The notes: generated by a model from the sequence alone, not told the origin. A stretch of DNA of 64,000 bases from an uncultured candidate division Zixibacteria bacterium (GCA_963735035.1 CAVTJJ010000003.1:736001-800000); one strand, 5' to 3'; positions 4,692 to 25,734 are shown, counted from the first letter of the stretch. Translations and numbers: made by a program.

Positions 4692-6181
4692 TGAAAGCCC
4701 GGACAAATACTGGCCGCAGTCATAACGGAGCCGGTCTGGCATTAATTCTTTGCTTTGGTCTTCTTCTCTCCACCTGGTGCTGCAGCGATGAACGCACGGC
4801 CAGTCAGTTGCCGGGCACCCACTCGGCTTCGTGGATGGTTAGGGGATTGGCCGATTTTCATGGTACGGTCGCACTACAGAACGGCACCGGAAGTTGCGCC
4901 GTATGTCACGGGGAGGACTACAATGGCGGGCAGGTAGGCGTTTCATGTATTGATTGTCATCTAACCAGCGGTGCCTGTATCGCCTGCCACGGCGGATTGG
5001 ACAACCACACCGGCGCACCACCTCTCGGACTTCGCAGCGAAATTTCCGACACAACCGTGGCCGTGGGTGCACACACTCTGCACCTGACCGGAACGTCGCG
5101 CTCAGCTGCGGTGACCTGCCAGTCGTGTCACCTCGTTCCGGCAAGCATGTTCGAGCCGTATCATCTGAACGCCAACGGCGGCGTTCTTGATTCGATTGCC
5201 GAAATAACCTGGCAAGGATTCGCCGACGGCGGTCGCGCTCGATGGAACCGTACCGCTCGCACCTGCTCCCGCACTTATTGCCACGGCAATTTCAGCGGCG
5301 GTGATTCCACCTATTCTCCGATATGGACATCGCCCAAACCAGATTCATTGCGGTGTGGCACCTGTCATAATTCTGGTGACAACCCTGACTCTCTCGGATT
5401 CATCCATATAGTTCACTATTCCGGCAATACCTTCGTATGTGCCGACTGTCATTCCGGTGTGGTGGACTCGTCGCTGCACATCATCACCCCTTCGCTTCAC
5501 GTCAACGGCGTTGCCAACGTCACCCCTCTGGACACCACTAGGTGCGATCAGTGTCACGGCACCGGCCCGGCGGCCTGCACCCACTGTCACGGCGGCGGTG
5601 ACAATCAGACCGGGGCGCCGCCTCGTGGTTTGCACGGCGAAAATTCCGCGGCCGAACTGGCCGTGGGAGCGCACACCCCGCACATGGAAAGCGGCTATGT
5701 GGCTGACGCTTTCGCGTGCAATGAGTGCCACAAAGTGCCATCCCGCCTGTCCGATCCCGATCATTGGGCGGTTGATTCGGTTGCCGAAATCACCTGGGGT
5801 TCGCTGGCCGGCACCGGCTCGACCTGGAGTCGCATTACCCGCCGCTGCAGCTACACCTACTGCCATGGGAACTTCTACGGTGGATATATCGCCAACGCAC
5901 CTATCTGGAACGCCCCCGGCCAGGCAGCTTGCGGCTCGTGCCATGACGACGGCGCCAATCCGGGCGATCTGCTGGGCAAACACAGCAAGCATGTCCGTAG
6001 CGAACATATCGGATGCTACGAATGTCACTCCACTACGGTCGATTCGAGCTTGTCGATTATTGGCAAAGCGGTTCACGTCGATGGCCAGAACACGGTCGCG
6101 TTCGGAGCCAGACAGATTACTTACTCGAACGGCGGATGTTCCGGCTCAGGGCTCTGCCACGGTGATGAAAACTGGTTCTGA
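4691..6181 (+). CDS. Multiheme cytochrome c with CxxxxCH/CxxCH motif pairs, probable lipoprotein (11 CxxCH, 2 CX4CH, 1 CX5CH)
   Basis: CSRTYCH..CGTCH and CSYTYCH..CGSCH pairs; internal duplication (TGAPP...AVGAH twice); signal ending LSTWCC. Confidence 0.9.
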   Translation: MKARTNTGRSHNGAGLALILCFGLLLSTWCCSDERTASQLPGTHSASWMVRGLADFHGTVALQNGTGSCAVCHGEDYNGGQVGVSCIDCHLTSGACIACHGGLDNHTGAPPLGLRSEISDTTVAVGAHTLHLTGTSRSAAVTCQSCHLVPASMFEPYHLNANGGVLDSIAEITWQGFADGGRARWNRTARTCSRTYCHGNFSGGDSTYSPIWTSPKPDSLRCGTCHNSGDNPDSLGFIHIVHYSGNTFVCADCHSGVVDSSLHIITPSLHVNGVANVTPLDTTRCDQCHGTGPAACTHCHGGGDNQTGAPPRGLHGENSAAELAVGAHTPHMESGYVADAFACNECHKVPSRLSDPDHWAVDSVAEITWGSLAGTGSTWSRITRRCSYTYCHGNFYGGYIANAPIWNAPGQAACGSCHDDGANPGDLLGKHSKHVRSEHIGCYECHSTTVDSSLSIIGKAVHVDGQNTVAFGARQITYSNGGCSGSGLCHGDENWF

Positions 6182-6211
6182 TTAATCTGTATTGAGATTG
6201 AATGACTGCTT

Positions 6212-8008
6212 CTATTTCACGGCCAACTGCGGATTCGAGCGGGCGTCCCTGAGATACTGAGCGCACTTCCGAAGCGATTCAACGTAAACTACAACCACCA
6301 ATATTAGCATCACCACCGTCGCCAACGCATTCAGGTTTCCCGTGAAAGTATGCTTGGGGAGATAGTTGTTGACGATGTTCTCGATTCCCGCCACGAAAGT
6401 CGTCGCGAACATGAATAGCGACGGGATGAAAGTCATCAGAGCGTAAGTCCATTTCCCCGAACGCTTCAGAATATAGATTGTACCTATCGACAGCGCCAGT
6501 GTGGCCAGAAGTTGGTTCGCGACCCCAAACATCGGCCAGATCGATGAAATATCGCCGTTGTAAACCAGATACCCCCACAGGAAACTGATCGCGGCGCTGC
6601 TGAAAATGACCCCGGGCAGCCAGGTCGAACTTCCGAGTTTCGGATGAATCGGCTTGAGAATCTCCTGCAGGATATAGCGCGCGACACGGGTGCCGGTATC
6701 GACCGTGGTCAGGATGAACAGCGCTTCAAACATGATCGCGAAATGATACCAATAACTCATCAGGTGTTTCATGCCCTGAATCGACGACAGAATCAGCGAC
6801 ATCCCCGCCGCCAATGAAACCGCCCCTCCCGTCCGTCCGGCCAGCGTTTCACCCGTCATCTGCTCAATATAATGAAGCTGATCGATCTGCATGCCCAGCT
6901 TGCTGAATACTTCCGGCGGAAGATTGATCGCGAAGTAATCACCGGGCATCATGGTGGTGGCAGCTATCAGCGCCATTATCGAAACAACCGCCTCGGCCAG
7001 CATCGAGCCGTAACCGATCAGGCGAATATCTCCTTCGCCGCTGATCATCTTGGGCGTCGTACCGGAACTTATCAGCGCGTGGAACCCACTGATCGCTCCA
7101 CAGGCAATCGTGATGCAGACAAACGGCCACACGGTGCCGGGAATGATCGGCCCTCCCCCGTGCACGAACTGGGTAATCGCGGGCATATGAATGACCGGGT
7201 TGACCACTATAATGCCGACCGTCAACAGCAGGATGGTCCCGATCTTCATGTACGAGCTTAGATAATCACGCGGACACAGCAGCAGCCAGACCGGCAGCAC
7301 TGAAGCAATCAGGCCATAGAGCGGGAGAATGATCGAAAGCGCCGGCTTTGAGAGAATGAAGTATTGGCCGAAAGCCGTGTGTGACAGCGGTTCTCCGGCT
7401 ATGACACCCAGGACTACAATAGTCACGCCGACCAACGATGCCTCGACCAGTTTCCCGGGTCGCAGCTTATACATGTACAGCCCGACGAACAACGCGGCTG
7501 GAACCGTGACAGCAATAGTGAAAGTCGCCCAGGCGCTTTCATTCAGCGCATTGACCACCACCAGAGCCAAACCGGCCAGGGCGGTGACAATTATGAAGAG
7601 AATCGCAAACGCCGTCGCAACACTTGCCACCGGGCTGACATGTTCCTTCGCCAGATGAGTCAGCGATTGACCCTGCGACCGCACCGAAGCAAATAGAATC
7701 ACCATGTCATGCACAGCCCCGCCGAGCACGGCGCCGATCAAAATCCACAAGTATCCGGGCAAATACCCGAACTGGGCGGCCAGGACCGGCCCCACCAACG
7801 GACCCGCCCCCGAAATAGCCGCAAAATGATGACCAAACAGCACCCAGCGGTTGGTCGGGTGATAGTCTTTTCCGTCGCGCAACGTGTACGCCGGAGTAGG
7901 AAGTGACTTATCGAATACGAGCGCTTTGGTTATGATGAACTTGGCGTAGAATCGATACGCCAGCGCGAAGAGCAGCAGGGCAATTATGATCAGAGTCGAT
8001 GCGTTCAT
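6212..8008 (-). CDS. cstA: Carbon starvation protein A family transporter
   Basis: VLFGHHFAAISGAGPLVGPVLAAQFGYLPG, PRDYLSSYMK, TIACGAISGFHAL and WPMFGVANQLL motifs. Confidence 0.95.
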   Translation of the reverse strand: MNASTLIIIALLLFALAYRFYAKFIITKALVFDKSLPTPAYTLRDGKDYHPTNRWVLFGHHFAAISGAGPLVGPVLAAQFGYLPGYLWILIGAVLGGAVHDMVILFASVRSQGQSLTHLAKEHVSPVASVATAFAILFIIVTALAGLALVVVNALNESAWATFTIAVTVPAALFVGLYMYKLRPGKLVEASLVGVTIVVLGVIAGEPLSHTAFGQYFILSKPALSIILPLYGLIASVLPVWLLLCPRDYLSSYMKIGTILLLTVGIIVVNPVIHMPAITQFVHGGGPIIPGTVWPFVCITIACGAISGFHALISSGTTPKMISGEGDIRLIGYGSMLAEAVVSIMALIAATTMMPGDYFAINLPPEVFSKLGMQIDQLHYIEQMTGETLAGRTGGAVSLAAGMSLILSSIQGMKHLMSYWYHFAIMFEALFILTTVDTGTRVARYILQEILKPIHPKLGSSTWLPGVIFSSAAISFLWGYLVYNGDISSIWPMFGVANQLLATLALSIGTIYILKRSGKWTYALMTFIPSLFMFATTFVAGIENIVNNYLPKHTFTGNLNALATVVMLILVVVVYVESLRKCAQYLRDARSNPQLAVK

Positions 8009-8165: not shown

Positions 8166-9089
8166 CTATCCTGTTGCGCCCAACGCACTTTTCAGGTTTC
8201 TGGTCAGACTGATTGGATCTTCCAGCAGGCCCGTTGTCCTGAACTTGGCGATTATGCTCGGCGGCATCTGGTCCGATGTGACTCCCGCCAGGATCAAGGC
8301 GGTCTCCTCTTGCGTAAACTCCGCCAGGTGCTCCTTCCACAGACGGACATCTTTGTTCTCGGGACAATAGTGCTGGCATTGCATACAACCTACCAGGCAA
8401 TGGTGCCAGGACTTATCTATCCATTGCGGAAACTGCTCGGACGACTCGTTGTGAAGTGTCAGACACCTCTCGGTGTGCAATTGAAACCGATCCGGGTCGA
8501 TGGCTCCGGTGGGGCAATGTTTCGTGCAGGCCTGACAGCCATCACACGCGTCAAGTACTTGAGGCTCACGCCAGCTATCACTTTCTACCGGCATATCAGA
8601 GTAGAATGCGAGGAGGCGGTGAAAACTTCCCATCCCTTCCACATAGGCGACGTTGTTCTTGCCGTAGCGCGCTATACCGCTCCGGACCGCTAATAGCTTC
8701 AGCGGCAGCATAGCACGACAGATCTGAAATCCATGCGGTACCAGGGAAGACTCAATGGCGGACGTCACGGTCTCATCAATACTGTGCTCATATGTGGGCG
8801 GAATGATCAAGGTGCGTTGTTTCCCATCGATATCGAAAGTCACTTCCAGCGCCGGGCGCGGTACCGCTACGACAACTATCGAGCGCGCCCACGGAACATC
8901 CTGTGAGAGCATATTCTCGAAATAGGCCGCGTATTGTCTGAACACGGCGCTATTAATCAAGTTAGACGCCCGCCCCTCTTCAATAGTCCGGCGTAATTCG
9001 AGCGAGCGCTCGGCCGACACGACCGCGGATTTGAATCCCCACTGCTCCAGGCTTGCCTGCAAGGCGTCGAGAACTTCTCTTGAACTCAT
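8166..9089 (-). CDS. Epoxyqueuosine reductase (QueG)/reductive dehalogenase-like 4Fe-4S dicluster protein
   Basis: KLLAVRSGIARYGKNN..G.GSF, CDGCQACTKHCPTGAI, RCLT and LVGCMQCQHYCPEN. Confidence 0.78.
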   Translation of the reverse strand: MSSREVLDALQASLEQWGFKSAVVSAERSLELRRTIEEGRASNLINSAVFRQYAAYFENMLSQDVPWARSIVVVAVPRPALEVTFDIDGKQRTLIIPPTYEHSIDETVTSAIESSLVPHGFQICRAMLPLKLLAVRSGIARYGKNNVAYVEGMGSFHRLLAFYSDMPVESDSWREPQVLDACDGCQACTKHCPTGAIDPDRFQLHTERCLTLHNESSEQFPQWIDKSWHHCLVGCMQCQHYCPENKDVRLWKEHLAEFTQEETALILAGVTSDQMPPSIIAKFRTTGLLEDPISLTRNLKSALGATG

Positions 9090-9205: not shown

Positions 9206-9802
9206 TTGGAGACGCTGTATCTTTGTACTATGAAGAACCTCAACCTGCTCACCACCGGGAGCAAACCCGCGCCGGGCGAACTCGTTCTCGTACAGGGGCT
9301 TGTGAATACATTCAATGTCGAAACGGGTGAAGATGAAATCGGCACCAAAGAATCGCTTAAAGCCTGGCTGGTCCGCCATGGCTTGCTGCGCTCGGCCGCA
9401 GAAGTAACTTCTGAGGACCATCGGATCGCACTATCGTTTCGTGAAGCAATCAGACACCTCCTGTTAGCCAACAACGGCCAAACGGTGGAACCCGCGTCGC
9501 TAAAGCAGATAAATGCTCTGACCTCTCGGCTCAAACTGGGAATACAATTCAAGTCTGACGGGAATCTAACCCTCTCGCCTGACAGCGACGGCATTGCCGG
9601 TGTTTGCGAGCAGATACTGGCTATTGTAGTTCAGGCCATCAACAAGGGGACCTGGTCTCGCCTGAAAGCCTGTCACGAGTCCCACTGCCAGTGGGTGTTC
9701 TATGACTCTTCGAAGAATCACTCCGGTCGCTGGTGCTCGATGACTGTCTGCGGCAGCCGCGACAAGGCCCGAGCCTTTCGCAAGCGTAGATCCCTGGGGT
9801 AG
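9206..9802 (+). CDS. CGNR zinc-finger / ABATE domain putative transcription regulator (start TTG 9206 or ATG 9230)
   Basis: PAPGEL.LVQ.LVNT N-terminus; C-terminal RLKACHESHCQWVFYDSSKNHSGRWCSMTVCGSRDKARAFR. Confidence 0.9.
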   Translation: METLYLCTMKNLNLLTTGSKPAPGELVLVQGLVNTFNVETGEDEIGTKESLKAWLVRHGLLRSAAEVTSEDHRIALSFREAIRHLLLANNGQTVEPASLKQINALTSRLKLGIQFKSDGNLTLSPDSDGIAGVCEQILAIVVQAINKGTWSRLKACHESHCQWVFYDSSKNHSGRWCSMTVCGSRDKARAFRKRRSLG

Positions 9803-10309: not shown

Positions 10310-11638
10310 CTACGCCAGCTTCTTCATCTCACCACCGAACGCAATGCCCATATCCCTGAGCATTTCAAACGGCGGGACGCCGCCTATCTGGACGATTACA
10401 TAGTCGTTGAGAATCTCGCGCACGCCCTCATTGGTTTGCAGGACCACGCTCTTGTCTTTGATTTCGACCACCTGTGAATCGAAAATCGCGTTTACTTTGT
10501 GACCCGCGATCAGCCGCGTCATGGCGTCTTCGTTCTTCTTCTTCACCCGAAAGAAGCTGCTCTTGCGATAGGATATAGTCACCGTATTTCCGGGTTGTCT
10601 CGCCAGACCGACCGCCGCTTCGACCGCACTGTCTCCTCCACCCACCACCAACACATGCTGGTTGGTGTAAGACTGGGCGTCGACCAGTTGATACATGACT
10701 TTGGCCTGTTCCTCGCCGGGCACTTCCAGCCGACGCGGCGTCCCGCGGCGACCGATCGCCAGCACCACAAAACGGGCCGAATACTCCGCCACCGGGGTCT
10801 TGATATCAAAATGGCTGTCAACGTGGCGAACTGACTCGACTTTCTGCCCCGGGCTCATCTTCAGATGAAAGCGATCATCGATTTCGTGCCAGATGCTCAT
10901 CAAGACTTCTTTCGAATACTCATCTTTCGTCAACCAACCGTAGAGCGGAATCTCGATCGGCTGCGTCATGACCAGTTTGCGGCGTGGATACTGGAGAATC
11001 GTGCCGCCCAACTCGCGTTCATCCAGCATGACATAATTCAGACCGTATTGTACTGCTGTTAACGCCGCTGAAATGCCGGCCGGTCCGGCCCCCACGATCA
11101 CGAAATCGTAATCAGTGCCATTCCCCGGCTTAACAATCCGTCGGGCGATTTCATCGACCACCATCCGCCCCTGGGCTACGGCGTTTCTAATTAGCGATAA
11201 CCCCCCCAGTTCGCCGGCTATAAACAGCCCCGGGACCGTGGTCTCGTTGACCGGCGTAAGAACCGGTATATCCGGGCGCGTTTTGATATCCCCCAGGCCG
11301 ACCTTAAGAGCTCCCACCGGACAGGCGGTTTCACAGAAACCGTGACCCACGCACCGCTCGCCGTTGATAACTTCGGCCACGCCCCATACCACTCCCAGGA
11401 CATCACCTTCCGGACAGGACGCAACACAGGCTCCACAACCGATACACTGAGACCGATTGACCATGGGATACTGGGCTCGTGGGCGGTCGATGCCCATGGC
11501 ATGCGCTTCCTGATGGCGTTCCGCCACGACCCGTCGGTTGTTCCGAAACTGGATCAGATACGGAAAGAAAATCACGGCTGCCAGAACCGCAACACCGGTC
11601 CAAATCAGTAGATGTTCCATAGTTGTTCTAACGTTCAA
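10310..11638 (-). CDS. Membrane-anchored ferredoxin plus thioredoxin-reductase-like FAD/NAD(P)H oxidoreductase
   Basis: N-terminal TM helix; CIGCGACVASCP and CVGHGFCETACP; GAGPAG FAD motif; GGGDSAVEAA NAD(P)H motif. Confidence 0.88.
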   Translation of the reverse strand: MNVRTTMEHLLIWTGVAVLAAVIFFPYLIQFRNNRRVVAERHQEAHAMGIDRPRAQYPMVNRSQCIGCGACVASCPEGDVLGVVWGVAEVINGERCVGHGFCETACPVGALKVGLGDIKTRPDIPVLTPVNETTVPGLFIAGELGGLSLIRNAVAQGRMVVDEIARRIVKPGNGTDYDFVIVGAGPAGISAALTAVQYGLNYVMLDERELGGTILQYPRRKLVMTQPIEIPLYGWLTKDEYSKEVLMSIWHEIDDRFHLKMSPGQKVESVRHVDSHFDIKTPVAEYSARFVVLAIGRRGTPRRLEVPGEEQAKVMYQLVDAQSYTNQHVLVVGGGDSAVEAAVGLARQPGNTVTISYRKSSFFRVKKKNEDAMTRLIAGHKVNAIFDSQVVEIKDKSVVLQTNEGVREILNDYVIVQIGGVPPFEMLRDMGIAFGGEMKKLA

Positions 11639-11655
11639 GAAGTTGTCTGGTTCGC

Positions 11656-13260
11656 TTAGAACCTGTAACCAAGTTCCGACTGAATCCGGAAACCCTTGAT
11701 ATCGTCGCCCGAATCGGTCTGCAATAACAGCCCCAGCCAGTATCGACGGCTGAGATCAGCCTGTCCGGACAGCTCGACCCAGTCGTTGTGTCGATAAGTC
11801 GTCACTTGCTCGGTCCGGTAGGCGTAGCTTCCGTAAGCAGCGTTGGCCGAGTACCTGCCACCAAAATAGGTGGTGGCTCGGACCGAGTAATTGTAGCCTC
11901 GGTTGGAAGGTCCGCTAAAGCCCGCGTACTGACCCATCAAGCTGAGCCCTTGAAACAGCAGGCTCCCCTTGCGAAGCTGTACTGAATAGGACTTGGTCGC
12001 GCTCGGGTCACCGGAGCGATTGCGATACCCCGCCGACAGAGACGAATACAGGTTACCGGGAAGTGTCAGATCGCTCTGCAGCCTGACTCCCTGGCGAAGA
12101 TGGTCATCGAATAGGCTGTCGACTGTAGAGCGGCTCCCGTATGTCCAGTAGTTGGTGCGGTTGTCATAGCTGAGAGAAAACCGTACCCGGGAAGTCGGAC
12201 GGATCCAGCCACTCAGGTAGAGATTCGACAGCTCGAACGTCGTCCCGGCCCGGACCTTTCGCCAGCTCCGATTGATATCAATCTCTCCGGTATGGTTTAT
12301 TCCCCATACGCTTCCCCGGCTCAGACGTCCCTGAATAACCAGGTACTCCCGGTTGACTTCCTGCCCATGATATTCACCAACTGCACCCAGGCTCTGCTCG
12401 AAATAGGTGTTCCGATAGTCACCTGAAGAGTAGCTGAAGTATCCGCCACCTTTCATTAGAGTCAGGCCTTGCTCATCGTACAGCCAATTCGGATAGGATC
12501 CACCGAACAGACCCGCGCGGAAGCGGTTGGACATCAGCCATTCCACCAACGCGCCGTCGATGAAGCCGATCGAGCCTGTCCGATGCGGCAGAATCCGACC
12601 GATCTGAAAATTGACCGGCGCCGACGGCTCCTCGTAGCTCAGCGAAAACTCCCATAGTCGATTCTGCCAGTCGTTGCGGGTGACAGCGGACGTGTAATCT
12701 CGCCGGCGTTTGTCAAACCGACCCCTTCCTCGTACGGCCAGCGTCAGTTCGTTGCCCCAGAGATGACGAGCCGTGAGTGATACTCGCGCGGTGGTTTGAC
12801 TGAAATCGAGATTCGACACGGTTTCATCGTTCCAGTAATAATACAAGAACGACATGCTGCCACTTACCGCCGCCTGACCTGGCTTGATTCGCACCGGCGT
12901 CGGTGCGGAAACGGGCGCGGGACTTACGGCCACCGGCTTTAGCGAATCTATCGTTACCGTACTGTCGAAGTTCAGAGGCGTCTTTGGTTCGACTGCGTCG
13001 CCGGCCTGAATATCACTCGTAGAGCTGATGATCTTGCACGAGGCCGAGTGGACCGAAATGTAAACCACTTCGATCTCCGCCTTGCTACCCTGTTTGCCCA
13101 AAACCAGAAGGCGCGTTCCCACGCTGAGACCGTCCGCCTGACCACCGTCAAGATAGACATTCTCGACCGAAACATATTTGACCGCAAAACGATCCTTGGC
13201 GCTTGCAGTAGCCACCAACAAGGTTAAGCAGACTGCGAATATCAGCAATTTCTTGATCAT
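11656..13260 (-). CDS. Predicted outer-membrane beta-barrel with N-terminal soluble domain (start reassigned to ATG 13260)
   Basis: MIKKLLIFAVCLTLLVATASA signal peptide; ATGA overlap with the cytochrome stop; amphipathic strands; C-terminal SELGYRF beta-signal. Confidence 0.8.
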   Translation of the reverse strand: MIKKLLIFAVCLTLLVATASAKDRFAVKYVSVENVYLDGGQADGLSVGTRLLVLGKQGSKAEIEVVYISVHSASCKIISSTSDIQAGDAVEPKTPLNFDSTVTIDSLKPVAVSPAPVSAPTPVRIKPGQAAVSGSMSFLYYYWNDETVSNLDFSQTTARVSLTARHLWGNELTLAVRGRGRFDKRRRDYTSAVTRNDWQNRLWEFSLSYEEPSAPVNFQIGRILPHRTGSIGFIDGALVEWLMSNRFRAGLFGGSYPNWLYDEQGLTLMKGGGYFSYSSGDYRNTYFEQSLGAVGEYHGQEVNREYLVIQGRLSRGSVWGINHTGEIDINRSWRKVRAGTTFELSNLYLSGWIRPTSRVRFSLSYDNRTNYWTYGSRSTVDSLFDDHLRQGVRLQSDLTLPGNLYSSLSAGYRNRSGDPSATKSYSVQLRKGSLLFQGLSLMGQYAGFSGPSNRGYNYSVRATTYFGGRYSANAAYGSYAYRTEQVTTYRHNDWVELSGQADLSRRYWLGLLLQTDSGDDIKGFRIQSELGYRF

Positions 13261-16200
13261 GCCCGCCCCCTTGGGTGACACGAGTAGCATGATGTGCTCT
13301 GGTACTGGTAGTTCTGAACACCGGAGTGCTTTGAATCGGTATCGGTCTTGTTGTGCTCGTGACAATTGATACACTCAAAGACGGCAAACGAACCCGCACT
13401 CACGTGACAATCTGCGCAAACACTCCAACGACCGTTGTGTATTCCTGAGTAGATCGGGAAATACTGACTGTCGTGATCCCAGGTCGACGGAGTCCAGCCG
13501 GTGGTCGTATGACAGTTCTGGCAGGCTGTCGGGAAGCCCGCCGCGGCGTGGCTCGGATTCGTGGTGGTCTGGTAAGCCGTCTGATGACACGCATAGCAAG
13601 CCGTCGAAGTGCCGGTATAGCCGCTGCTATGACACGCCACGCACGTCAAAGTTGTGTGCGCTCCCGTAAGCGGGAACGCCGTGGTGGCGTGGTTGAAGGA
13701 CGATGGCGTCCAAGCCGTAGTGGTGTGACAGGTCGTACAAATGTGATCGAAATTGTTGGTCACATGGTTCGGGTCTACCACTCCCTGGTAGGCCGCCTGG
13801 TGGCAGGAATAGCATGCTGTCGAAGTTCCGGCATAACCACTAGCGTGACACGATACACAGGTCACCGTAGCATGGGCTCCCGTAAGTGGGAAAGCCGTGG
13901 TGGCGTGGTTGAAGGTCGATGGCGTCCAGGCCGTAGGTGGTATGGCAGGTCGTACAAATGTGATCGAAATTGTTGGTCACATGGTTCGGGTCTACCACCC
14001 CCTGGTAGGCTGCCTGGTGGCAGGAATAACAATCGGTCGGTGTCCCGGCATAGGCCGTGGCGTGACAGGATATACACGTCACCGTAGTGTGAGCACCGGT
14101 CAAAGTGTAGCCGGTCGACGAATGGCTGAACGACGATGGCGTCCAGGCCGTGGTCGTGTGGCAGCCGGTACAGTCTTGGCTGAAACCAGCCAAGACATGG
14201 TTGGGATTAGTGGACGACGTAAAATTACTCTGATGACAGGAATAACATGCCGTCGAAGTTCCCGTATAACCACTGGCGTGGCACGATACACAGGTCACTG
14301 TGGTGTGCGCGCCGGTCAGCGGAAATGCCGTAGTGGCATGGTTGAAAGTCGAGGGCGTCCAAGCCGTGTTGTTATGACAGGTCAAACAATTGTGGTCGAA
14401 ATTGTTGGTCACATGGTTCGGATCTACCACCCCCTGGTAGGCCGCCTGATGGCAGGAATAACAGTCTGTCGGCGTTCCGGCATAGACCGTGGCGTGGCAC
14501 GAAACGCAGGTCACCGTAGTGTGAGCCCCGGTCAAAGCGTAACCCGTCACCGTATGGTTAAACGACGATGGCGTCCAGGCCGTAGTCGTATGGCAGCCGG
14601 TACAGTCTTGGCTGAAACTCGCCAGCACGTGGTTCGGATTGGTAGACGACTCGAAATTGCTCTGATGGCAGGAATAACAGTCGGTCGGCGTGCTGACGTA
14701 ACCCCCGGCGTGACACGAAATGCACGTCACCGTAGTATGCGCCCCTGTCAGCGGGAAGGCGGTAGTGGCGTGGTTGAAGCTCGAAGGAGTCCAGCCGCTA
14801 GAAGTATGGCAGGTCTGACAGTCGGTTGGGAATCCGGCCGTTACGTGGTTAGGATTCGTAGCCGTCGCAAAGGAGCTCTGATGACACGCATAGCAGGTCG
14901 TCGGCGTCCCGGTGTATCCGGCCGCATGACACGAATTACAACCTATCGTCAGATGCTGTCCCGTGAGGGCGAACGACGTCAGGGCATGACTAAAGCTCGA
15001 CTCCGCCCACGAGGTAGTATTGTGGCAGGTCAGGCAATTGTGATCGAAATTGCCCGTCACGTGATTCGGATCCGCCACACCCTGGTAGGCCGCCTGATGG
15101 CAGGAATAACAATCGGTCGGCGTACCGGCATAAGCTGTCGCATGACACAGATTACAGGCGGTGGTAATATGGGTACCCGTCAACGTGTAGCCTGTTACCG
15201 AGTGATTATATGACGACGGCGTCCAGCCACTGGTCGTATGGCACGTTGTGCAGTCGTGGCCAAAATTGGCGAGCGCGTGATTCGGGTTGGTGCCGGACGC
15301 ATAAACGCCCTGATGACACGAATAGCAATCGGTCGGTGTGCCGGCGTACCCGCTCGCATGACACAAATTACACGCGACGTTGACGTGCAAGCCGGTCAGC
15401 GGAAAAGCTGTAGTAGCATGGTTGAAAGTCGAGGGCGTCCACCCTGCCGTCGTATGACACACCGTGCAGTCGTGACCAAACCCCTGCTGCACATGGTTCG
15501 GCGACGTAACACCTTCGAATGCGGCCTGGTGGCAACTGTAGCAGTCAGTTGGAGTCCCGGCAAAGGTAGTGCTATGGCATCCTGAGCATGTCGCGCTGAC
15601 GTGCTTTCCGGTCAGCACAAATCCGGTCGTCGAGTGATTAAACGACGACGGCTTCCACGCGGAAGTAGTATGGCACTTAGTACAGTCGTGATCGAATTGC
15701 GCCAGAACGTGATTGGGATCCGTCGATTGATCGAAAACGGCCTGGTGACAGGCATAACAAGCGGTCGGCGTTCCCTTGTACTGTGTCGCATGGCAGGAGA
15801 TGCAAGTCGCCTGAAGATGCGCACCAGTCAGCGGAAACACTGTCAGGGAATGGTCAAAAGTGGCCGGCTTCCAGCCGTAGATCGTGTGGCACTGCGTACA
15901 GTCATGCGGGTAGGCGCCCGTCACATGGTTCGGATCGGTCGTGGCAGCAAAGACAGCCTCGTGGCATGAATAGCAATCGGTCGCTAAACCGACATACTGA
16001 GTAGCGTGGCACGCCTTGCAGGCCACTCCCTGATGCCCACCGACAAGCGGAAAAGCCGCCGGGTGATGATATTCCACATTCCGCCAGGTGGATGCAGTCG
16101 GCTGATGACAAACCTTACAGTCGGTCGAAAAACCGGCCCGCGCATGATTCGGATCCTGGGTCGCCGAGTACGCCTCCGTATGGCAATCGTAGCAAACCAT

Positions 16201-16665
16201 CGGCGTGCCGGCGTACTCCTGTCGCGCGTGGCCGACATGGCAAGCTTCGCAGTCCGCGACCGCGTGCGCACCGGTCAGAGCAAATCCCCTTGAGGCGTGC
16301 ATTTCGAGCGTACTTCGACGGTTCTGCCAATCGCGCGGCGTGTGGCAATTGTCGCAGTCCTGACCAAGCTGGCCGTTGTGGCGATCAGCGTGGCAGTCAG
16401 CACAGGCAACTCCGACGTTACTAAACAGGGGACTCTTGTGGCAGCCGATACACTGCGCCGTTGCGTGCGAACCTACCAGGACAAAGCCGGTCGCATCGTG
16501 CTTGAACTGCAGCGAATCGCGCATCTTCGACCAGGATTCGGTGGTATGGCAGTCCTGACAGTCCCACTTCAAGTTACCGTGGGGGTTCTTCACGGTCGAT
16601 TGACTTAGAAGCGCACTTCCGATAAGCAATGACGCGCCAATCAGAAACAAGAAGAATCGTCTCAT
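13257..16665 (-). CDS. Giant tandem-repeat multiheme cytochrome c (~1135 aa, 46 CxxCH by manual count) split by a +1 frameshift near 13936
   Basis: Signal peptide MRRFFLFLIGASLL; 72-aa triheme repeats continue across ORFs 13840..16713 and 13257..13865; ccgtaGGtggtatgg has one extra G versus sister repeat ccgtagtggtgtga. Confidence 0.9.
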
Positions 16666-16667
16666 GA

Positions 16668-18320
16668 TTAACTGCTCCTTTCCGGAGTGATCGTGCCGTG
16701 GCAGGAGACGCAAGTGATGTCAATCGGCTTGTATTTGGCAAATAGTCCGTTCTCGTCTTTTACACTCAAATGACACTTTTCACAGAGCACCGTCCGGTGG
16801 GCGCCGTCCAGTTTGAACCGACTATTCTTATGGTCGAACTTCGTAGTCTTCCAGCTTGATGCCAAATGGCACCCCGAACAATCGGTGGCATTATCCTTCG
16901 CGAATTGACCGCGATGAGTATCCGGATGACACGATTGGCAATCGGTCCGGATACCGGTAAAGCGCACCGCTTTGATGTCTTTCGCCTGGGCGATATCGGT
17001 ATGACACTTCATACAGGCAACTTGGACGTGACGCCCTTCGAGAGGAAACTTGCTCTTCGAATGGTCATAATTGACCCGGTTCCACCCCTCGACTGCGTGA
17101 CAGAGTTCACACCCTGAGGCCGCCACCATCTTGTCCACTTGTCCCTTGTGCGGGTCCTTATGGCATCCCAGGCATTTCACAGAAGCGAAGACAAACCGCA
17201 GCTTTGAAGAACCATCGGCCGCTTTCAGCTTGTGGCAAGTCAGACACGGTACGGCTTGATGGGCGCCACGAAGCGGATAATCCGATTGATCGTGCTGGGC
17301 CATCGTGTAGCGCGCCGGAGAGTAACCGCCGACCGTATGGCACTCTTCGCAAGCGCCCTTCGACGCCCGCTTGGCGAAATCTCCATTATGGTAATCCGAA
17401 TGGCAGTCACGACAGGCGGCGAATTTCAATCCCGGCTTGGCCTGGCCTCCGCTGTGACATTTCTCGCACTTCAGGGCAAGATGCTTCCCTTCCAACGGGT
17501 AGCGCGTCTTCTTGTGATCGAAATTCACCGTATTGACCAAACGCCACCCTTCACTGCTATGACAGGAGCTACAGTTCGCCCCGAGCTTACCCTTATGCGG
17601 ATCGGTATGGCAGTCAGTGCATTGGGCAAACGGCAAGCCGACGTACTTCTGGTAGTTGGGATCTTCCGGGAGCGGACGGTCGGTCAGAAGTGGGTGACAT
17701 TTTACACAGAGAACGGTCATGTGCTTGCCTGTCAGAACATATTTGGCCGTGGCGTGGTCGAAGGCCGCCGCCGGTTTCCACGCGGTCATAACGTGGCACT
17801 TGGCGCAGACTTCACTCAATTGGCCGCGATGCTCATCCCGATGGCACGCTGTGCAGGCGGTCTGAAGTCCCAGGAAAGTCCTCTTTGGGTTAGTCTTCTC
17901 CTTCGATCCAACCGCCAGCGCGCCCATATACTTGGCGTCATGACACTTGCGGCAAGTCAGCGAGCCATGTTTCCCCTCAAGACGAAACGCGGTGGCAGAA
18001 TGGTCAAACGCGGTGTCGCCGTCTTTCCAATAGATCAGAGCAACGTCACGCCCCTGGTGCTCCACATGGCACTTCTGGCAGGAACGATAATCCTGGCGGC
18101 TGTGCAGTCCTTTGCCGGCGTCCTGCTGGTTCTTGATCCGGACATGGCAGTCAAGACATTTGTCCGGCACCAGTTCCTGATCACCACCGTGGCATTTGGT
18201 GCAGTTCTCAACTCCTTCGAGAGACGTATGCCCCTCACTTAGATCACCGGGCGAGAGCTGCGCCCGAACTGTCCCCGCCCCGAGGAAGAAAAGAAATATG
18301 AGCAGTAGGCCCCTTACCAT
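16668..18320 (-). CDS. Lys-rich periplasmic multiheme cytochrome c (20 CxxCH)
   Basis: Signal peptide ending VRA|QLSPG; repeated FDH..(F/Y).L.G.H...CxxCH units; manual count of 20. Confidence 0.92.
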   Translation of the reverse strand: MVRGLLLIFLFFLGAGTVRAQLSPGDLSEGHTSLEGVENCTKCHGGDQELVPDKCLDCHVRIKNQQDAGKGLHSRQDYRSCQKCHVEHQGRDVALIYWKDGDTAFDHSATAFRLEGKHGSLTCRKCHDAKYMGALAVGSKEKTNPKRTFLGLQTACTACHRDEHRGQLSEVCAKCHVMTAWKPAAAFDHATAKYVLTGKHMTVLCVKCHPLLTDRPLPEDPNYQKYVGLPFAQCTDCHTDPHKGKLGANCSSCHSSEGWRLVNTVNFDHKKTRYPLEGKHLALKCEKCHSGGQAKPGLKFAACRDCHSDYHNGDFAKRASKGACEECHTVGGYSPARYTMAQHDQSDYPLRGAHQAVPCLTCHKLKAADGSSKLRFVFASVKCLGCHKDPHKGQVDKMVAASGCELCHAVEGWNRVNYDHSKSKFPLEGRHVQVACMKCHTDIAQAKDIKAVRFTGIRTDCQSCHPDTHRGQFAKDNATDCSGCHLASSWKTTKFDHKNSRFKLDGAHRTVLCEKCHLSVKDENGLFAKYKPIDITCVSCHGTITPERSS

Positions 18321-19243
18321 ACCCACCCGTATCCGGTCCAGACAACCACACTGATATGAACCATCATTATGATATACATGAGAATCGCAAACGGCTTGTG
18401 GATCACATGCCAGTAATGAAACGTTTGCTGCACCTGTGCCAGCAGCGCCACCCGTCGCTGAAGCAGCGCCCTTGTGAACGCCGGTTTTGCAAATTCTCGC
18501 AGTTGTCGCTTGGGCATAGGCATGGCAACCATTATCTCATGTACAAAGCGGCGCCGCACAAACGGACGAAACAAATCGTCCACAAGCAAGAGGCCGATGG
18601 CTCGCATGGCGCCGCCCCCGAAACCGGTAACGTACCGGGCGGTCACGCCCTCGAGCTTGATGATGCCGGCGTCATCTAGTTCAAAACGATTTCGCAGTTG
18701 CTTGGTTAAATCGCCCATTAGCCCATTTAGTTCCTGAATGGTCAGTTCTGTGCCCTGGATATTTCGAGGAATCTGCAGATAAAGATAGCGGCCGAAAAAT
18801 CCGCTTGCAGCCACCGCCACCATAGACCAGAAAGCTACCGCCACCAGACCTTGTACCTTGAAAGCCGTATGTAGTACAATGAAGAGCGGTCCCATAACGC
18901 CCAGGTAAATATGAAAATCCAGCAATGACCGAAGCGAAATCTTCCGTCCCAACAACTTGGTACGCTTGCGCACCGAATAGATCAGCATCAGAACCAACAT
19001 CCCTGCTCCGGCATAACCGTACATCAGCCCTCGGGTTCCGGCGGGGCGGAATTCGCGATAGCCTAGGTCGTGAGGCCGGTCGGCATAGGGGGTCGTGTAG
19101 TACGAAAAACCGTCTATCAGAAACCAGACAAGCAGAGCTATAGAAACGAGCCAAACCAGCCAGAAGAACAGACTCCTGCCGGACTCATTATTGTGGGGTT
19201 TCTCAAGGACGGGACTGACCGCCTCAACGAGTGGTAATTGCAT
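18314..19243 (-). CDS. Inner-membrane protein with His residues in TM segments (putative b-type heme binder)
   Basis: Hydrophobic helices carrying DFHIYLG, VLHTAF, FHYWHVIHKP and VHIS; first gene of the cytochrome operon. Confidence 0.75.
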   Translation of the reverse strand: MQLPLVEAVSPVLEKPHNNESGRSLFFWLVWLVSIALLVWFLIDGFSYYTTPYADRPHDLGYREFRPAGTRGLMYGYAGAGMLVLMLIYSVRKRTKLLGRKISLRSLLDFHIYLGVMGPLFIVLHTAFKVQGLVAVAFWSMVAVAASGFFGRYLYLQIPRNIQGTELTIQELNGLMGDLTKQLRNRFELDDAGIIKLEGVTARYVTGFGGGAMRAIGLLLVDDLFRPFVRRRFVHEIMVAMPMPKRQLREFAKPAFTRALLQRRVALLAQVQQTFHYWHVIHKPFAILMYIIMMVHISVVVWTGYGWVW

Positions 19244-19593
19244 CCAGAAAACGTCCTATTTGAATGCTTATGTCATTACCAGCTATCTGGTCTACAGGTT
19301 CGACCGGGGCTCGAACCGGGTCCAATGCGTATCAGTCTTTATATCGGCAGTTTAGTAAAGCGAATCAAAGAAAAAGAAGTATTGTCAGTTTGCAGGCAAA
19401 AGGCACTGGCCCTGAAGAGCTTGTGAGGTTGCCTAACTTCAATCAATATCGCCTTCTCGAGCTCACGGGCCTGGTCAAGGGTCTGCGATCCCCCTCCGAT
19501 ATACGGGAAAATGGAGAGCAATATCGCTCGGCTTTCCCAAACCCAATACGGTTATGCGGACACGGCAGTGGACGCTGAAAGGGTGACTCTCTC

Positions 19594-20394
19594 ATGAGTA
19601 ATCTACGGGAACACTTAAAGCCAAATCAACTCAAGGGCAGCAAGCCTCGCTGTCACACACTAACGCATGGCCTACCAGAACAAGTTGCCAGGCAGCTAAA
19701 CAAGCTCGTTGATCCTTGCGGCTCGATCGCGGCATCCGACTTCTGGATGCCACGGGGTTTTGACGACATCGAGGAAGCCCAGTTGCACAACGCGCCGCAC
19801 TTGCTTGATACAAAACGGAACGGGGAAGCGCTCAAATCGTGGTGGCTCGCCTGCGCCGGCTCCACTACGCGTACACCGAACTGGGATATCGCAAGCACTT
19901 GCACGATTGAAGGCAGACCTGGCTTGCTTCTGGTTGAGGCCAAAGCGCACTGTAGAGAACTGAAGACGAAAGATCGCTGTGGCTCCGGCAATGAAATGAA
20001 TTACGAGCGTATCGGACAGGCAATACGCGAGGCCAACGACGCTTTCAACCTGATTAGGCCCGGCTGGAAATTGTCACACGAGCATCACTATCAGTTGAGC
20101 AATCGCTTTGCATGGAGCTGGAAGCTGGCGAGTCTTGGCATACCGGTTGTGCTCGTGTATCTGGGGTTTCTGAATGCAAATGAAATGAACGACCCCTTCC
20201 ATGATGAGCAATCCTGGGTTCGTACAGTACAGAGCTATGCTCGAGATGTTGTGCCCGAGAGTGTTTGGGACAGCAAATTGATAATTGGCAATACTCCCCT
20301 CTACGCGCTCATCCGTTCAATAGAGATTCCGTTGGCGTCGATTACCGCTACAACTGATGAGTTGAAGGCAAGAAGCGCAACAAGAGTCCATTAG
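19594..20394 (+). CDS. Hypothetical protein with PD-(D/E)XK nuclease-like motif
   Basis: PNWDIA...LLLVEAKAH and HYQL.NR; isolated 266-aa ORF. Confidence 0.6.
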   Translation: MSNLREHLKPNQLKGSKPRCHTLTHGLPEQVARQLNKLVDPCGSIAASDFWMPRGFDDIEEAQLHNAPHLLDTKRNGEALKSWWLACAGSTTRTPNWDIASTCTIEGRPGLLLVEAKAHCRELKTKDRCGSGNEMNYERIGQAIREANDAFNLIRPGWKLSHEHHYQLSNRFAWSWKLASLGIPVVLVYLGFLNANEMNDPFHDEQSWVRTVQSYARDVVPESVWDSKLIIGNTPLYALIRSIEIPLASITATTDELKARSATRVH

Positions 20395-23466: not shown

Positions 23467-24243
23467 CTATTTCCGGCCGGTCTTGGGAATTTGCGCCAGG
23501 AGGCGAAGCAGACCGTCAAGTATCGTAACGGGATGGGGCGGGCAGCCGGGTATAAAAAGGTCCACCGGCAGCAGGTTCTCGGCGCCGTTGTGTACCTGGG
23601 GATGGTCGACATACGGTCCGCCGGAAATTGCGCAGGCTCCGACCGCGATCACAATCTTCGGATCGGGCACCGCCTCGTAGGTCTTGAGTAGAGCGAGTTT
23701 CATGTTTTCCGTGACCGGGCCCGTAATCAACAACCCGTCGGCGTGTCTCGGCGAAGCTACAAACTGGATACCAAAACGCCCCAGATCGTACACAATGGTG
23801 CCCAGCACATTTATGTCTACCTCACACCCGTTACACCCACCGGCGCTTACCTGCCTCAGACGAAGCGAGCGCTTGAACAAGCGAAGAGATTCATCCTGGA
23901 GCTTTTGAACCAGCACTTTCTCCGAATCGTGTCGAATCAGAAGATCGGAGCGATTATTGGCGGCCAGGCTGTGGTCACCAGAGTACCTAATCAATTTTCC
24001 CGAACAAGCTTTCACACACTCCCCACAGAAGAGACAGCGGCCCATATCAATCACCGGATGGCGGTCAACCACTTTGACCGCGACTGTTGGACAGACTCTT
24101 ACGCACTCAGAGCATTCGTTCGCACAGTTATCCGAACTGACCACAGGCCGACCGGCAAACCGCTCCGGAAGGATCGGGGGTTCGTCAGGGAAACCGACCG
24201 TCCGGTTTCCGAATTTCATGCGCGCGAGTAACGCTTTCAGCAT
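23467..24243 (-). CDS. Group-4 hydrogenase-related small subunit (ferredoxin fused to NuoB/HyfI-like domain)
   Basis: CSECVRVCP and CLFCGECVKAC; SAGGCNGCE, SPRHAD, GACAISGG and IPGCPP. Confidence 0.9.
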   Translation of the reverse strand: MLKALLARMKFGNRTVGFPDEPPILPERFAGRPVVSSDNCANECSECVRVCPTVAVKVVDRHPVIDMGRCLFCGECVKACSGKLIRYSGDHSLAANNRSDLLIRHDSEKVLVQKLQDESLRLFKRSLRLRQVSAGGCNGCEVDINVLGTIVYDLGRFGIQFVASPRHADGLLITGPVTENMKLALLKTYEAVPDPKIVIAVGACAISGGPYVDHPQVHNGAENLLPVDLFIPGCPPHPVTILDGLLRLLAQIPKTGRK

Positions 24244-24252
24244 AAGTCTGCT

Positions 24253-25734
24253 CTACAGGTCATGGCCACAGTACGAAAGGTTGAAACTCTTATTGCACAG
24301 CGGGAAGTCCGATATCTGCTGGTTTCGCATCGCGGCCGCGAGGCCGGCCCAGTTATGAAATGACGGATCGAACACTTTGTACCATTCGAATCGCCCGTCG
24401 CCGCCAGTGCACGCTATATGACAGATTTCGCCGCGCCATCCTTCGACCAGCGAAATAACGAGTGAGTCCGGCTCAATCGAGTCAGACGTAGCCGGGGCCA
24501 GAGCCGGCTCGTTTGGCATGGTTGTCAACCGGGCGCGAATAAACTCAACCGAGCGGGCAATCTCCTGCCAACGAATATGCGCACGCCCAAACACATCCCC
24601 CGTCTGCCACAGCGACACCGGAATCTGAGCAAAACTGAAGACATCAGAAGGATAATCCAAACGCGCATCCTGTTCCAATCCTGCCGCCCGCGCGGGGGGA
24701 CCAACGATTCCCAATTCCCGACACTGCGCCATTCCGAGCAATCCCGCCCCTTCGAAACGACTGACCACCGACGGCGTGTCCCACAACAGAGCCGCGGTCG
24801 TACTGATGTCCGCAAAAGCCTGATCCAGTCTCTTCAGGAACACCTCTATCTGACTCTCATCGAGATCATACGCCACACCGCCGGGCCGCGCGATGCCGCG
24901 CCCAAGCCGATTGCCACAGAGAAATGCCGTCAGGTTCAGGAAGTCTCCCCGAATTCGTCCACAGTGTGACGCCACCGGAAGATAGCCAACATCGCCGGCC
25001 AGCGCCCCGAGATCGCCCGTGTGATTGGCCAGACGTTCCAACTCCAGCGCCACGCTTCGCAAGATCATCCCGCGCAAAGACACTCGACGGTGCGACAAGG
25101 TCTCTAAATTCTGGCAGTACGCGGTGGCATGCCCGACCGACGTATCCCCCGCCAGCGTTTCCATATAATGTATGGTGCGCGGGGTCGGTCCGTCCTTCAA
25201 AGCCTGTTCCACGCCCCGGTGTTGATACCCGAGTGAGATTTCCAAGTGTAGGACATTTTCCCCTGCGCACGAAAATCTAAAATGCCCCGGCTCGATTATT
25301 CCCGCGTGCACCGGGCCAACTGCCACTTGATGAATGTCGCTTCCGGAAATACTGTAGAAATCGGTTATTCCCACCGGCGATCCGCTGAATCGAATAGGCT
25401 TCAGCCAGGGATGCCCTTCGGGAGTCACACCGCACGATTCTGCGATCTCTCTTTCGAACCAGTGGGCCTGCGTGCACTGCGGCGTCAAAGCAGGATACCT
25501 ATCCTTCACGAGCGTCGAGCAAGTCTTGAGCGCCCCTTCATCCCGGACGGAAATCACCCCGTAGAGCCGGTGTCCATTGACATGCGGTTGCGCGAACAAG
25601 GCAATCAACCGGTCGCCGATGGCAACGCTCCCAATGATCGTCTCAGCGAAAGAATCGAACTTGAGCATCGGGATGTCCCGAAGCCGCACCAGTTCGCAAT
25701 GGCGACACATGAGCGCCCGATCTCCACTCATCAC
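24253..25734 (-). CDS. Hydrogenase-4/Ehr large subunit (NuoCD/HyfG-like) lacking NiFe-binding cysteines
   Basis: WFEREIAE, GPVHAGIIEPGHFRF, LGYQHRG, ELERLANH, VEGWRGE and DPSFHNW; C-terminus DFPLCNKSFNLSYCGHDL. Confidence 0.9.
   Translation of the reverse strand: MMSGDRALMCRHCELVRLRDIPMLKFDSFAETIIGSVAIGDRLIALFAQPHVNGHRLYGVISVRDEGALKTCSTLVKDRYPALTPQCTQAHWFEREIAESCGVTPEGHPWLKPIRFSGSPVGITDFYSISGSDIHQVAVGPVHAGIIEPGHFRFSCAGENVLHLEISLGYQHRGVEQALKDGPTPRTIHYMETLAGDTSVGHATAYCQNLETLSHRRVSLRGMILRSVALELERLANHTGDLGALAGDVGYLPVASHCGRIRGDFLNLTAFLCGNRLGRGIARPGGVAYDLDESQIEVFLKRLDQAFADISTTAALLWDTPSVVSRFEGAGLLGMAQCRELGIVGPPARAAGLEQDARLDYPSDVFSFAQIPVSLWQTGDVFGRAHIRWQEIARSVEFIRARLTTMPNEPALAPATSDSIEPDSLVISLVEGWRGEICHIACTGGDGRFEWYKVFDPSFHNWAGLAAAMRNQQISDFPLCNKSFNLSYCGHDL

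Follow-up and report, generated by a model that had tools for sequence, protein, structure and literature searches.

The porin-cytochrome conduits called PCC3 were defined by He et al. (2017, Front Microbiol 8:1584, PMC5566968) through an inner-membrane protein (IMP) of about 300 amino acids (aa) with five transmembrane (TM) helices, an SGxxG motif on TM4 and a WX3HX13H motif on both TM3 and TM5; the HX13H and SGxxG features define the IMPs of PCC3 and PCC4. According to the accessible text of that paper, two cytochromes belong to the system, a very large, low-complexity one built from repeats (median 34 hemes) and a second with about 21 hemes, and the hosts are Gallionellaceae, Leptothrix and other Proteobacteria. 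Papers up to 2025, as far as their text is accessible, still call PCC3 functionally unverified (10.1101/2025.02.27.639646). Here we describe a five-gene cassette at positions 10310-19243, minus strand, of a 64,000-nucleotide stretch from an uncultured candidate division Zixibacteria bacterium (GCA_963735035.1, CAVTJJ010000003.1:736001-800000); the whole of this stretch is referred to below as the window. The genes encode an IMP, a 20-heme c-type cytochrome, a giant repetitive c-type cytochrome, an outer-membrane beta-barrel and a membrane-anchored iron-sulfur (Fe-S) flavoprotein, here called the oxidoreductase (Table 1). With a probability of about one half, we read the cassette as a self-contained trans-envelope conduit of the PCC3 type that has, in addition, a reductase of its own, linked to NAD(P)H, on the cytoplasmic side.

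A first-pass annotation of the window had described a tightly coupled minus-strand run of a His-rich IMP, a 20-heme cytochrome, a cytochrome of about 46 hemes, a beta-barrel and a TM-anchored oxidoreductase with two [4Fe-4S] clusters, FAD and NAD(P)H sites, and had likened it to the PCC3-type conduits, which it took to be biochemically unresolved. Most of this description stands. Five co-directional open reading frames (ORFs) and their junctions bear out the run, the smaller cytochrome has 20 CxxCH motifs, the barrel was recovered by structure prediction and fold comparison, the IMP is indeed rich in His, and the literature cited above gives PCC3 the same unverified status. Two parts had to be amended: the 46 CxxCH of the giant cytochrome are divided as 37 + 9 between two ORFs by a one-base frameshift, and the oxidoreductase, with TM helix, Fer4 and flavin domains as described, has seven Cys and one His in its Fe-S motifs instead of eight Cys.

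At the level of sequence motifs, the products of the first four genes agree with the PCC3 definition except for the TM3 Trp. The prototype PCC3 genes are those of Sideroxydans lithotrophicus ES-1 and Leptothrix cholodnii SP-6. As in PCC3, the barrel gene adjoins a multiheme cytochrome gene, and a cytochrome of about 20 hemes is accompanied by a very large, repeat-built one rich in Thr, Ser, Ala and Gly. The cassette departs from the four-gene make-up of PCC3 in its fifth, always co-inherited gene for an Fe-S flavoprotein; the barrel has 22 strands compared with up to 42 predicted in PCC3 (He et al., accessible text, PMC5566968), and the host phyla differ from the Proteobacteria of PCC3. In MtrCAB and MtoAB and in Geobacter Pcc/Ext, too, an outer-membrane barrel insulates a multiheme chain; unlike in those systems, the barrel matches no family, its best fold matches are of usher and OprD type, and the heme numbers are far larger. 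Electrons enter the MtrCAB-type and Pcc/Ext systems at the inner membrane by way of quinol dehydrogenases such as CymA, ImcH and CbcL.

Conservation of the cassette across genomes

A scan of one genome per species returned 476 loci with a relative of the IMP, and the gene content of the 80 closest was determined by tblastn with the window proteins. Their hosts belong to Zixibacteria, Ignavibacteria, Calditrichota, Acidobacteriota, Abyssobacteria and Eisenbacteria, and none is labelled proteobacterial. The contig ends before the oxidoreductase position in 25 of the 80 loci. All 55 that reach far enough contain the oxidoreductase, and no locus with room for the gene lacks it. In 51 the barrel gene is followed by the oxidoreductase gene on the same strand, and four show another arrangement: two have a few overlapping bases, one (L054, a Calditrichia chromosome) has an extra 49-CxxCH cytochrome at 16622-20302 between barrel and oxidoreductase, besides a 25-CxxCH one before the barrel, and one (L068) has IMP and oxidoreductase alone. 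The possibility that the oxidoreductase is a hitchhiker was rejected in view of its presence in all 55 informative loci. The first-pass annotation had made its proposal depend on conservation of the oxidoreductase with the cluster and of the membrane His residues, and the survey agrees on the former as the alignment of 38 IMP homologues does on the latter.

Among the four proteins compared, the oxidoreductase is the best conserved (mean pairwise identity 0.57), followed by the IMP (0.47), the 20-heme cytochrome (0.46) and the barrel (0.36). Pairwise distances of the four are correlated over the 44 complete loci (r 0.84-0.91), which shows co-inheritance, not contact. The genes flanking the cassette in the window do not recur in the 80 loci save for one weak DEAD-box match (in L080), and Pfam revealed no shared flank family or accessory gene in 89 flank ORFs from 29 loci. 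Because the flanks do not recur, the conserved unit is exactly these five genes.

Predicted functions of the five proteins

The oxidoreductase consists of an N-terminal TM helix, a Fer4 domain and a Pyr_redox_3 (Pfam, 2.2e-45) or Pyr_redox_2 domain. Its two Fe-S motifs read CxxCxxCxxxCP and CxxHxxCxxxCP, and all eight residues concerned (C59, C62, C65, C69, C90, H93, C96 and C100) are invariant in 45 homologues, together with the motifs GxGxxG, GGGDSAxE and SYR. The His of the second motif is also kept in the oxidoreductase of Emticicia oligotrophica, and judging from the motif the second cluster may be a [4Fe-4S] cluster with a His ligand or a [3Fe-4S] cluster. Lysine and arginine are nearly absent before the TM helix (about 0) and amount to about 6 in the 15 residues after it, and a twin-arginine motif was found in none of the 45 homologues; therefore the cofactor domains should face the cytoplasm. 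The SYR(K) sequence after the second Rossmann strand, without the acidic residue typical of NADH sites, is a hint that the enzyme prefers NADPH.

In its flavin and NAD(P)H domains the oxidoreductase is closest to YpdA/Bdr and to the ferredoxin-NADP+ reductases (FNR) of thioredoxin reductase (TrxR) type, which lack the N-terminal TM anchor and ferredoxin domain seen here. The best match in the PDB is Bdr/YpdA (7a7b, 1.1e-28), followed by TrxR and TrxR-type FNR (FNR entries 5ygq, 3lzw and 3ab1). The scores lie below the NCBIfam cutoffs both for YpdA (TIGR04018, 168.4 bits against 339.9) and for thioredoxin reductase (TIGR01292, 94 bits against 343), and the NADPH domain has no redox-active CxxC. 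The YpdA/Bdr family requires a catalytic Cys. All seven Cys of the oxidoreductase lie within residues 59-100, in the ferredoxin domain, and a role as disulfide reductase was ruled out because the flavin domain contains none.

The IMP has five TM helices predicted from hydropathy, with the N-terminus in the cytoplasm. Of its nine His, four are invariant when 38 relatives that are 45-80% identical to the window protein are aligned; they form the two HX13H pairs H111/H125 and H282/H296, and W278 and S147-G148-x-x-G151 are invariant as well. The SGxxG motif reads SGFFG in the window protein and TM5 has the WX3H; on TM3 Leu takes the place of the Trp, which occurs in only some homologues. The loops 92-105 and 151-284 are rich in lysine and arginine and are cytoplasmic by hydropathy and charge, which places one His of each pair near each membrane face, as would be expected of a stack of two b hemes. 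The IMP may thus be described as a putative di-heme b transmembrane electron carrier. Its AlphaFold2 (AF2) model is of moderate quality (pLDDT 78.6). A word-indexed search gave 1715 relatives at E <= 1e-3, an exhaustive one 3639 cluster representatives. Searching the ESM Atlas led only to unnamed clusters, whose members come from Acidobacteriota, Gemmatimonadota and Myxococcota.

The barrel protein has no match in Pfam or NCBIfam. Its AF2 model (pLDDT 82.7) begins with a signal helix and a small beta domain, which are followed by a disordered Pro/Ala-rich linker, the 22-strand barrel and a C-terminal ..GYRF, and Foldseek relates the model to the outer-membrane barrels PapC/FimD and OccD/OprD (E about 1e-9). 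The smaller cytochrome, presumed to span the periplasm, has 27.5 aa per heme and Cytochrome_C7/c3 Pfam matches, and its orthologues have exactly 20 CxxCH in 50 of 57 loci. The giant cytochrome is rich in Thr, Ala, His, Ser, Cys and Gly and is built of 216-nucleotide (nt) tandem repeats, corresponding to 72 aa with three hemes each. Across loci the large cytochrome has 10-73 CxxCH, mostly following a 1+3n series (16, 19, 22, 25, 28, 37, 46, 52, 55, 58, 67, 70, 73), from which it follows that its length changes by whole three-heme repeats, with the partner cytochrome staying at 20.

The break in the giant cytochrome gene was located by three-frame translation and inspection of the DNA: near 13935 there is an extra base where the paralogous repeats read CHTTTAW. 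Skipping one base there yields a protein of 1135 aa with no internal stops, 46 CxxCH and 24.7 aa per heme. One possible explanation is a genuine mutation that would cut the outer cytochrome short at 37 hemes and leave the cassette inactive in this genome, as would fit a frameshift that is present in the sequence in a non-homopolymer context and is followed by an in-frame stop at 13840. We regard this as rather improbable: the read-through protein agrees with the 1+3n series and with the intact ORF of locus L031 (1142 aa, 46 hemes), and neither half of the cytochrome has decayed further. More probably the extra base is an assembly indel, because the window has a second frameshift, in alaS, an essential gene that is normally in one piece; this second case suggests that the window carries assembly indels.

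Pairing with redox proteins and a proposed electron path

Several loci outside the common arrangement place an IMP next to a redox protein. In Emticicia oligotrophica DSM 17448, a cultured member of the Bacteroidota, plasmid pEMTOL02 carries ccsA, IMP, oxidoreductase, a 23-heme cytochrome, a 40-heme cytochrome and the barrel in this order, with the IMP adjoining the oxidoreductase. Identities to the window proteins are 33% for the IMP, 40% for the oxidoreductase and 22% for the barrel, and ccsA precedes the cluster in Emticicia only. In L068, an Acidobacteriota contig, the IMP is directly followed by the oxidoreductase (5415-7845) between genes for ArsA-type ATPases and a PDZ protein, and neither cytochrome nor barrel is encoded within the 10.4-kb contig. 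A search for longer relatives of the IMP yielded four proteins of 649-742 aa in which 4Fe-4S dicluster domains are joined to an IMP match; in P0390, the one of the four that was read, the 4Fe-4S domains occupy a signal-less N-terminal part ahead of the IMP-like TM domain, and 4Fe-4S domains fused in this way are predicted to be cytoplasmic. Two apparent fusions were rejected. P0356 (418 aa), composed of an N-terminal part of the IMP, cytochrome fragments and a C-terminal part of the oxidoreductase, was read as a deletion or misassembly and not as a designed fusion, and a barrel-oxidoreductase fusion in L076 is an ORF-extension artefact.

Shorter relatives of the IMP have a comparable association. 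Three plasmid loci of Alphaproteobacteria were inspected, those of Bradyrhizobium sp. BTAi1, Acetobacter aceti and Methylocystis rosea, and in each a gene annotated as 2Fe-2S cluster-binding lies directly upstream of the IMP relative. The BTAi1 reductase, the only one scanned against Pfam, has FAD_binding_6, NAD_binding_1 and Fer2 domains and is of FNR type; the IMP relative has HX13H and is 35% identical to the window IMP over 135 aa, and the next gene encodes a 7-heme cytochrome. This module (plasmid pBBta01, 3332-11978) is flanked by pentose-phosphate genes, gnd and zwf at one end and tal at the other, and its placement beside the NAD(P)H-producing zwf and gnd is suggestive, although it is a single case. 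Clusters of a multiheme cytochrome, an IMP and an "other redox protein", including those of Gallionella, Leptothrix and Dechloromonas, are listed in Table S6 of He et al. 2017 (PMC5566968, as far as accessible), so a redox protein beside such IMPs is already in print, but not for PCC3. Redox proteins of 412-425 aa are among those of Table S6. The modules of Table S6 and of the alphaproteobacterial plasmids share with the cassette an HX13H IMP beside a cytoplasmic redox protein, and those of BTAi1 and Table S6 also adjoin a small multiheme cytochrome. Their IMPs are shorter, about 190-310 aa, and the partners in Acetobacter and Methylocystis are known by their 2Fe-2S annotation alone. With neither barrel nor giant cytochrome, electrons in these modules would stop in the periplasm.

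We propose the following path for the complete cassette. The membrane-anchored flavoprotein would oxidise NAD(P)H at its FAD and pass electrons on by way of two Fe-S clusters, in the second of which an invariant His replaces a Cys, to a cytoplasm-side heme b of the IMP (H111 and H282) and from there to a periplasm-side heme b (H125 and H296). The 20-heme periplasmic cytochrome would receive them and hand them to the 46-heme cytochrome, which would either run through the 22-strand barrel or dock on it, for delivery to an extracellular acceptor. What the analysis shows is the gene content, the motifs, the topology signals, the fold of the barrel, and that all five genes are conserved and inherited together; from this we infer the cofactor binding, the docking of flavoprotein and IMP, the direction of flow, the nucleotide specificity and the independence of quinones. 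The route from NAD(P)H through FAD, Fe-S clusters and b hemes to c hemes is the best-supported wiring because of the conservation of all five genes, the gene order in Emticicia, the isolated pair in L068, the 4Fe-4S fusions and the plasmid pairs.

The published PCC3 model would wire the same proteins differently. In it the IMP exchanges electrons with the quinone pool and the flavoprotein stands beside the main path, where it could serve as a local type-II-like NAD(P)H:quinone reductase or as a maintenance or regulatory reductase. For this type of IMP a quinone-active di-heme cytochrome b was proposed by He et al. 2017 (accessible text, PMC5566968), the PCC3 clusters of Gallionellaceae are reported as four genes without the enzyme (PMC9900912, 10.1101/2025.02.27.639646, likewise from their accessible text), and no fold or sequence tie of the IMP to NAD(P)H-driven enzymes of the FRD superfamily rises above threshold. 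A coupling to quinones nevertheless seems unlikely to us. It leaves unexplained why the flavoprotein is kept in every informative locus and occurs with the IMP without cytochromes in L068, why the adjacency of the two genes survives the altered gene order of Emticicia, and why Fe-S domains are found fused to IMPs; moreover, a two-cluster wire with a His-bearing terminal motif is needless for a simple quinone reductase. No quinone-binding motif was identified in the IMP, though none was specifically searched for.

The NAD(P)H-linked reading has its closest functional parallel in the NADPH oxidases and ferric reductases (NOX, FRE, STEAP, MsrQ-Fre), in which electrons from cytoplasmic NAD(P)H pass a flavin and then two b hemes, ligated by His pairs of TM3 and TM5, before they reach an acceptor on the trans side. 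The IMP has corresponding His pairs, invariant in the 38 sequences, and heme binding by them is predicted; the analogy of the IMP to NOX and ferric reductases was already drawn by He et al. (PMC5566968, accessible text). In contrast to the FRD superfamily, the dehydrogenase of the cassette is a separate, TM-anchored protein with a TrxR/YpdA fold and two Fe-S clusters and not a fused FNR-type domain, the IMP has five helices and not six, and electrons would go to a chain of 66 hemes instead of straight to O2 or Fe(III).

Several observations weigh against our reading. The only family signal of the IMP is sub-threshold (PF01794 Ferric_reduct, residues 76-134, E 0.005, 17.4 bits where the cutoff is 28), a Foldseek search of the PDB with its model gave a best E of 0.62 and no significant match to NOX, STEAP, MsrQ or any other chain, and a sequence profile retrieved no PDB chain at E up to 1. 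With no fold match and the Pfam score below threshold, heme b binding by the IMP is predicted from motif geometry, and the IMP may also hold a quinone site. Neither the best 150 of the 3639 representatives nor the search for longer relatives contained a fusion of IMP and oxidoreductase, a sign of pairing that the first-pass annotation had thought worth looking for and in whose place only the four 4Fe-4S fusions were found. The giant cytochrome gene is frameshifted in this window, and the survey covers the closest 80 of the 476 matching loci. Proteobacterial PCC3, finally, comprises four genes without such an enzyme and is modelled as quinone-linked in the accessible text of three papers (PMC5566968, PMC9900912, 10.1101/2025.02.27.639646), so a conduit can evidently exist without the flavoprotein.

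As to direction, outward electron flow is preferred on bioenergetic grounds: between NAD(P)H and an acceptor such as Fe(III), Mn(IV) or humics there is a wide gap in potential, and electron export runs with the membrane potential. If the flow were inward, the conduit would oxidise extracellular Fe(II), Mn(II), a cathode or a partner cell, and the flavoprotein would work in reverse as an NAD(P)+ reductase. PCC3 was discovered in Fe(II) oxidisers and is discussed as a candidate iron oxidase (PMC5566968, PMC9900912, 10.1101/2025.02.27.639646, accessible text), and some of the Table S6 clusters with a redox protein come from Gallionella, Leptothrix and Dechloromonas (PMC5566968). Inward flow across a two-heme protein would oppose the membrane potential, however, and Fe(II) is far too oxidising for the reduction of NAD(P)+, so that only donors of very low potential would remain. 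To our knowledge, none of the hosts found here (Zixibacteria, Calditrichota, "Ignavibacteria", Acidobacteriota and Emticicia) is known as a lithotrophic iron oxidiser. Inward uptake is accordingly very improbable.

Since the outward path would dissipate and not build proton-motive force, it would likely serve as a redox-balancing sink or in reductive mobilisation of Fe and Mn from minerals and not as a coupling site. A broader reading, which we hold only tentatively, sees in the cassette a complete quinone-independent wire: a split, Fe-S-extended bacterial counterpart of the NADPH oxidases and ferric reductases that would feed about 66 c hemes leading to minerals, spread as a portable cassette among Zixibacteria, Calditrichota, Ignavibacteria-like bacteria, Acidobacteriota and Bacteroidota, and acting as a non-coupling vent or in Fe/Mn mobilisation, not in respiration.

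Surroundings of the cassette and significance

The genes of the cassette are closely spaced. Those for the IMP and the 20-heme cytochrome overlap by 4-13 nt, the gap between the two cytochrome genes is about 2 nt if the ATG at 16665 is used, the stop of the giant cytochrome gene overlaps the barrel start in an ATGA at 13257-13260, and 17-35 nt precede the oxidoreductase gene. Scans for promoters and terminators gave counts that were not above those of shuffled sequence. Two neighbours lie downstream, a 4Fe-4S protein and a putative regulator (Table 1); the CGNR/ABATE regulator is near the cassette in none of the 80 loci, where the Fer4_16 protein was not searched for.

Table 1. Features of the 64-kb window, with the genes of the cassette first
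Feature	Position	Strand	Basis or remark
IMP (inner-membrane protein), 309 aa	18314-19243	-	ORF call
20-heme c-type cytochrome, 552-aa ORF, signal peptide	16668-18326	-	CxxCH count and Pfam; probable ATG 18320
Giant repetitive c-type cytochrome	13257-16713	-	46 CxxCH if read through; probable ATG 16665
Giant cytochrome as two ORFs, 957 aa (37 CxxCH) and 202 aa (9 CxxCH)	13840-16713 and 13257-13865	-	One-base frameshift near 13935
Outer-membrane beta-barrel, 534 aa	11656-13260	-	AF2 model and Foldseek; ORF 11656-13374, probable start 13260
Membrane-anchored Fe-S flavoprotein (oxidoreductase), 436-442 aa	10310-11638	-	Pfam, conserved motifs; probable ATG 11620
Downstream neighbour, 307-aa protein	8166-9089	-	4Fe-4S double-cluster domain (Fer4_16)
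Downstream neighbour, putative regulator	9206-9802	+	CGNR zinc-finger/ABATE
Second cytochrome cluster	2329-6181	+	Led by a 435-aa protein without Pfam family
Cytochrome of second cluster	3633-4691	+	13 CxxCH
Cytochrome of second cluster	4691-6181	+	11 CxxCH and 2 CX4CH; Geobacter CxxxxCH...CXXCH motif family
Complex-I/Mrp/Mbx-like membrane cluster	23467-30784	-	Oxidored_q6 with Fer4, 49-kDa/30-kDa fusion, NADHdh, Proton_antipo_M
Subtilase, sigma factor, CHAT and caspase region	33437-54108		See text
alaS (alanyl-tRNA synthetase) as two overlapping ORFs, 499 and 439 aa	59185-61921	-	Frameshift near 60,470-60,500

The second cytochrome cluster of the window may be another porin-cytochrome set, and the overlapping ORFs in the complex-I-like cluster may be further frameshifts. 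The region at 33437-54108 encodes a 2238-aa subtilase with beta-helix domains and a C-terminal sorting tail of the type IX secretion system. Next to each of its two TPR-CHAT proteins is a sigma factor with sigma-70 region 2 (ECF-like). The region also encodes a caspase-domain protein, a second subtilase, which bears a dockerin, and a HipA-like kinase, the last in a patch of low GC (0.487 at 44-46 kb).

In a search of the literature neither the five-gene form nor a route from NADH to multiheme cytochromes that is independent of quinones was found to be described. The accessible text of the supplement of He et al., in which several tables are possibly images with little text, mentions neither Emticicia, Caldithrix nor Ignavibacteria, nor thioredoxin reductase. 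New is therefore the NAD(P)H-linked fifth gene of a PCC3-like conduit, a link not described for such systems, with a flavoprotein that probably connects the conduit to NAD(P)H.

The published models assume that electrons enter PCC3-type conduits at the inner membrane from the quinone pool. A conserved, dedicated flavoprotein of NAD(P)H type, if true, would give the conduit a defined cytoplasmic partner and make this entry step testable with two proteins, the IMP and the flavoprotein. The presence of all five genes on a plasmid of the cultured Emticicia oligotrophica DSM 17448 offers an experimental handle that the uncultured hosts lack. If the reading holds, phyla that are abundant in sediments and the subsurface would have a further route for extracellular electron transfer, one that does not involve quinones.

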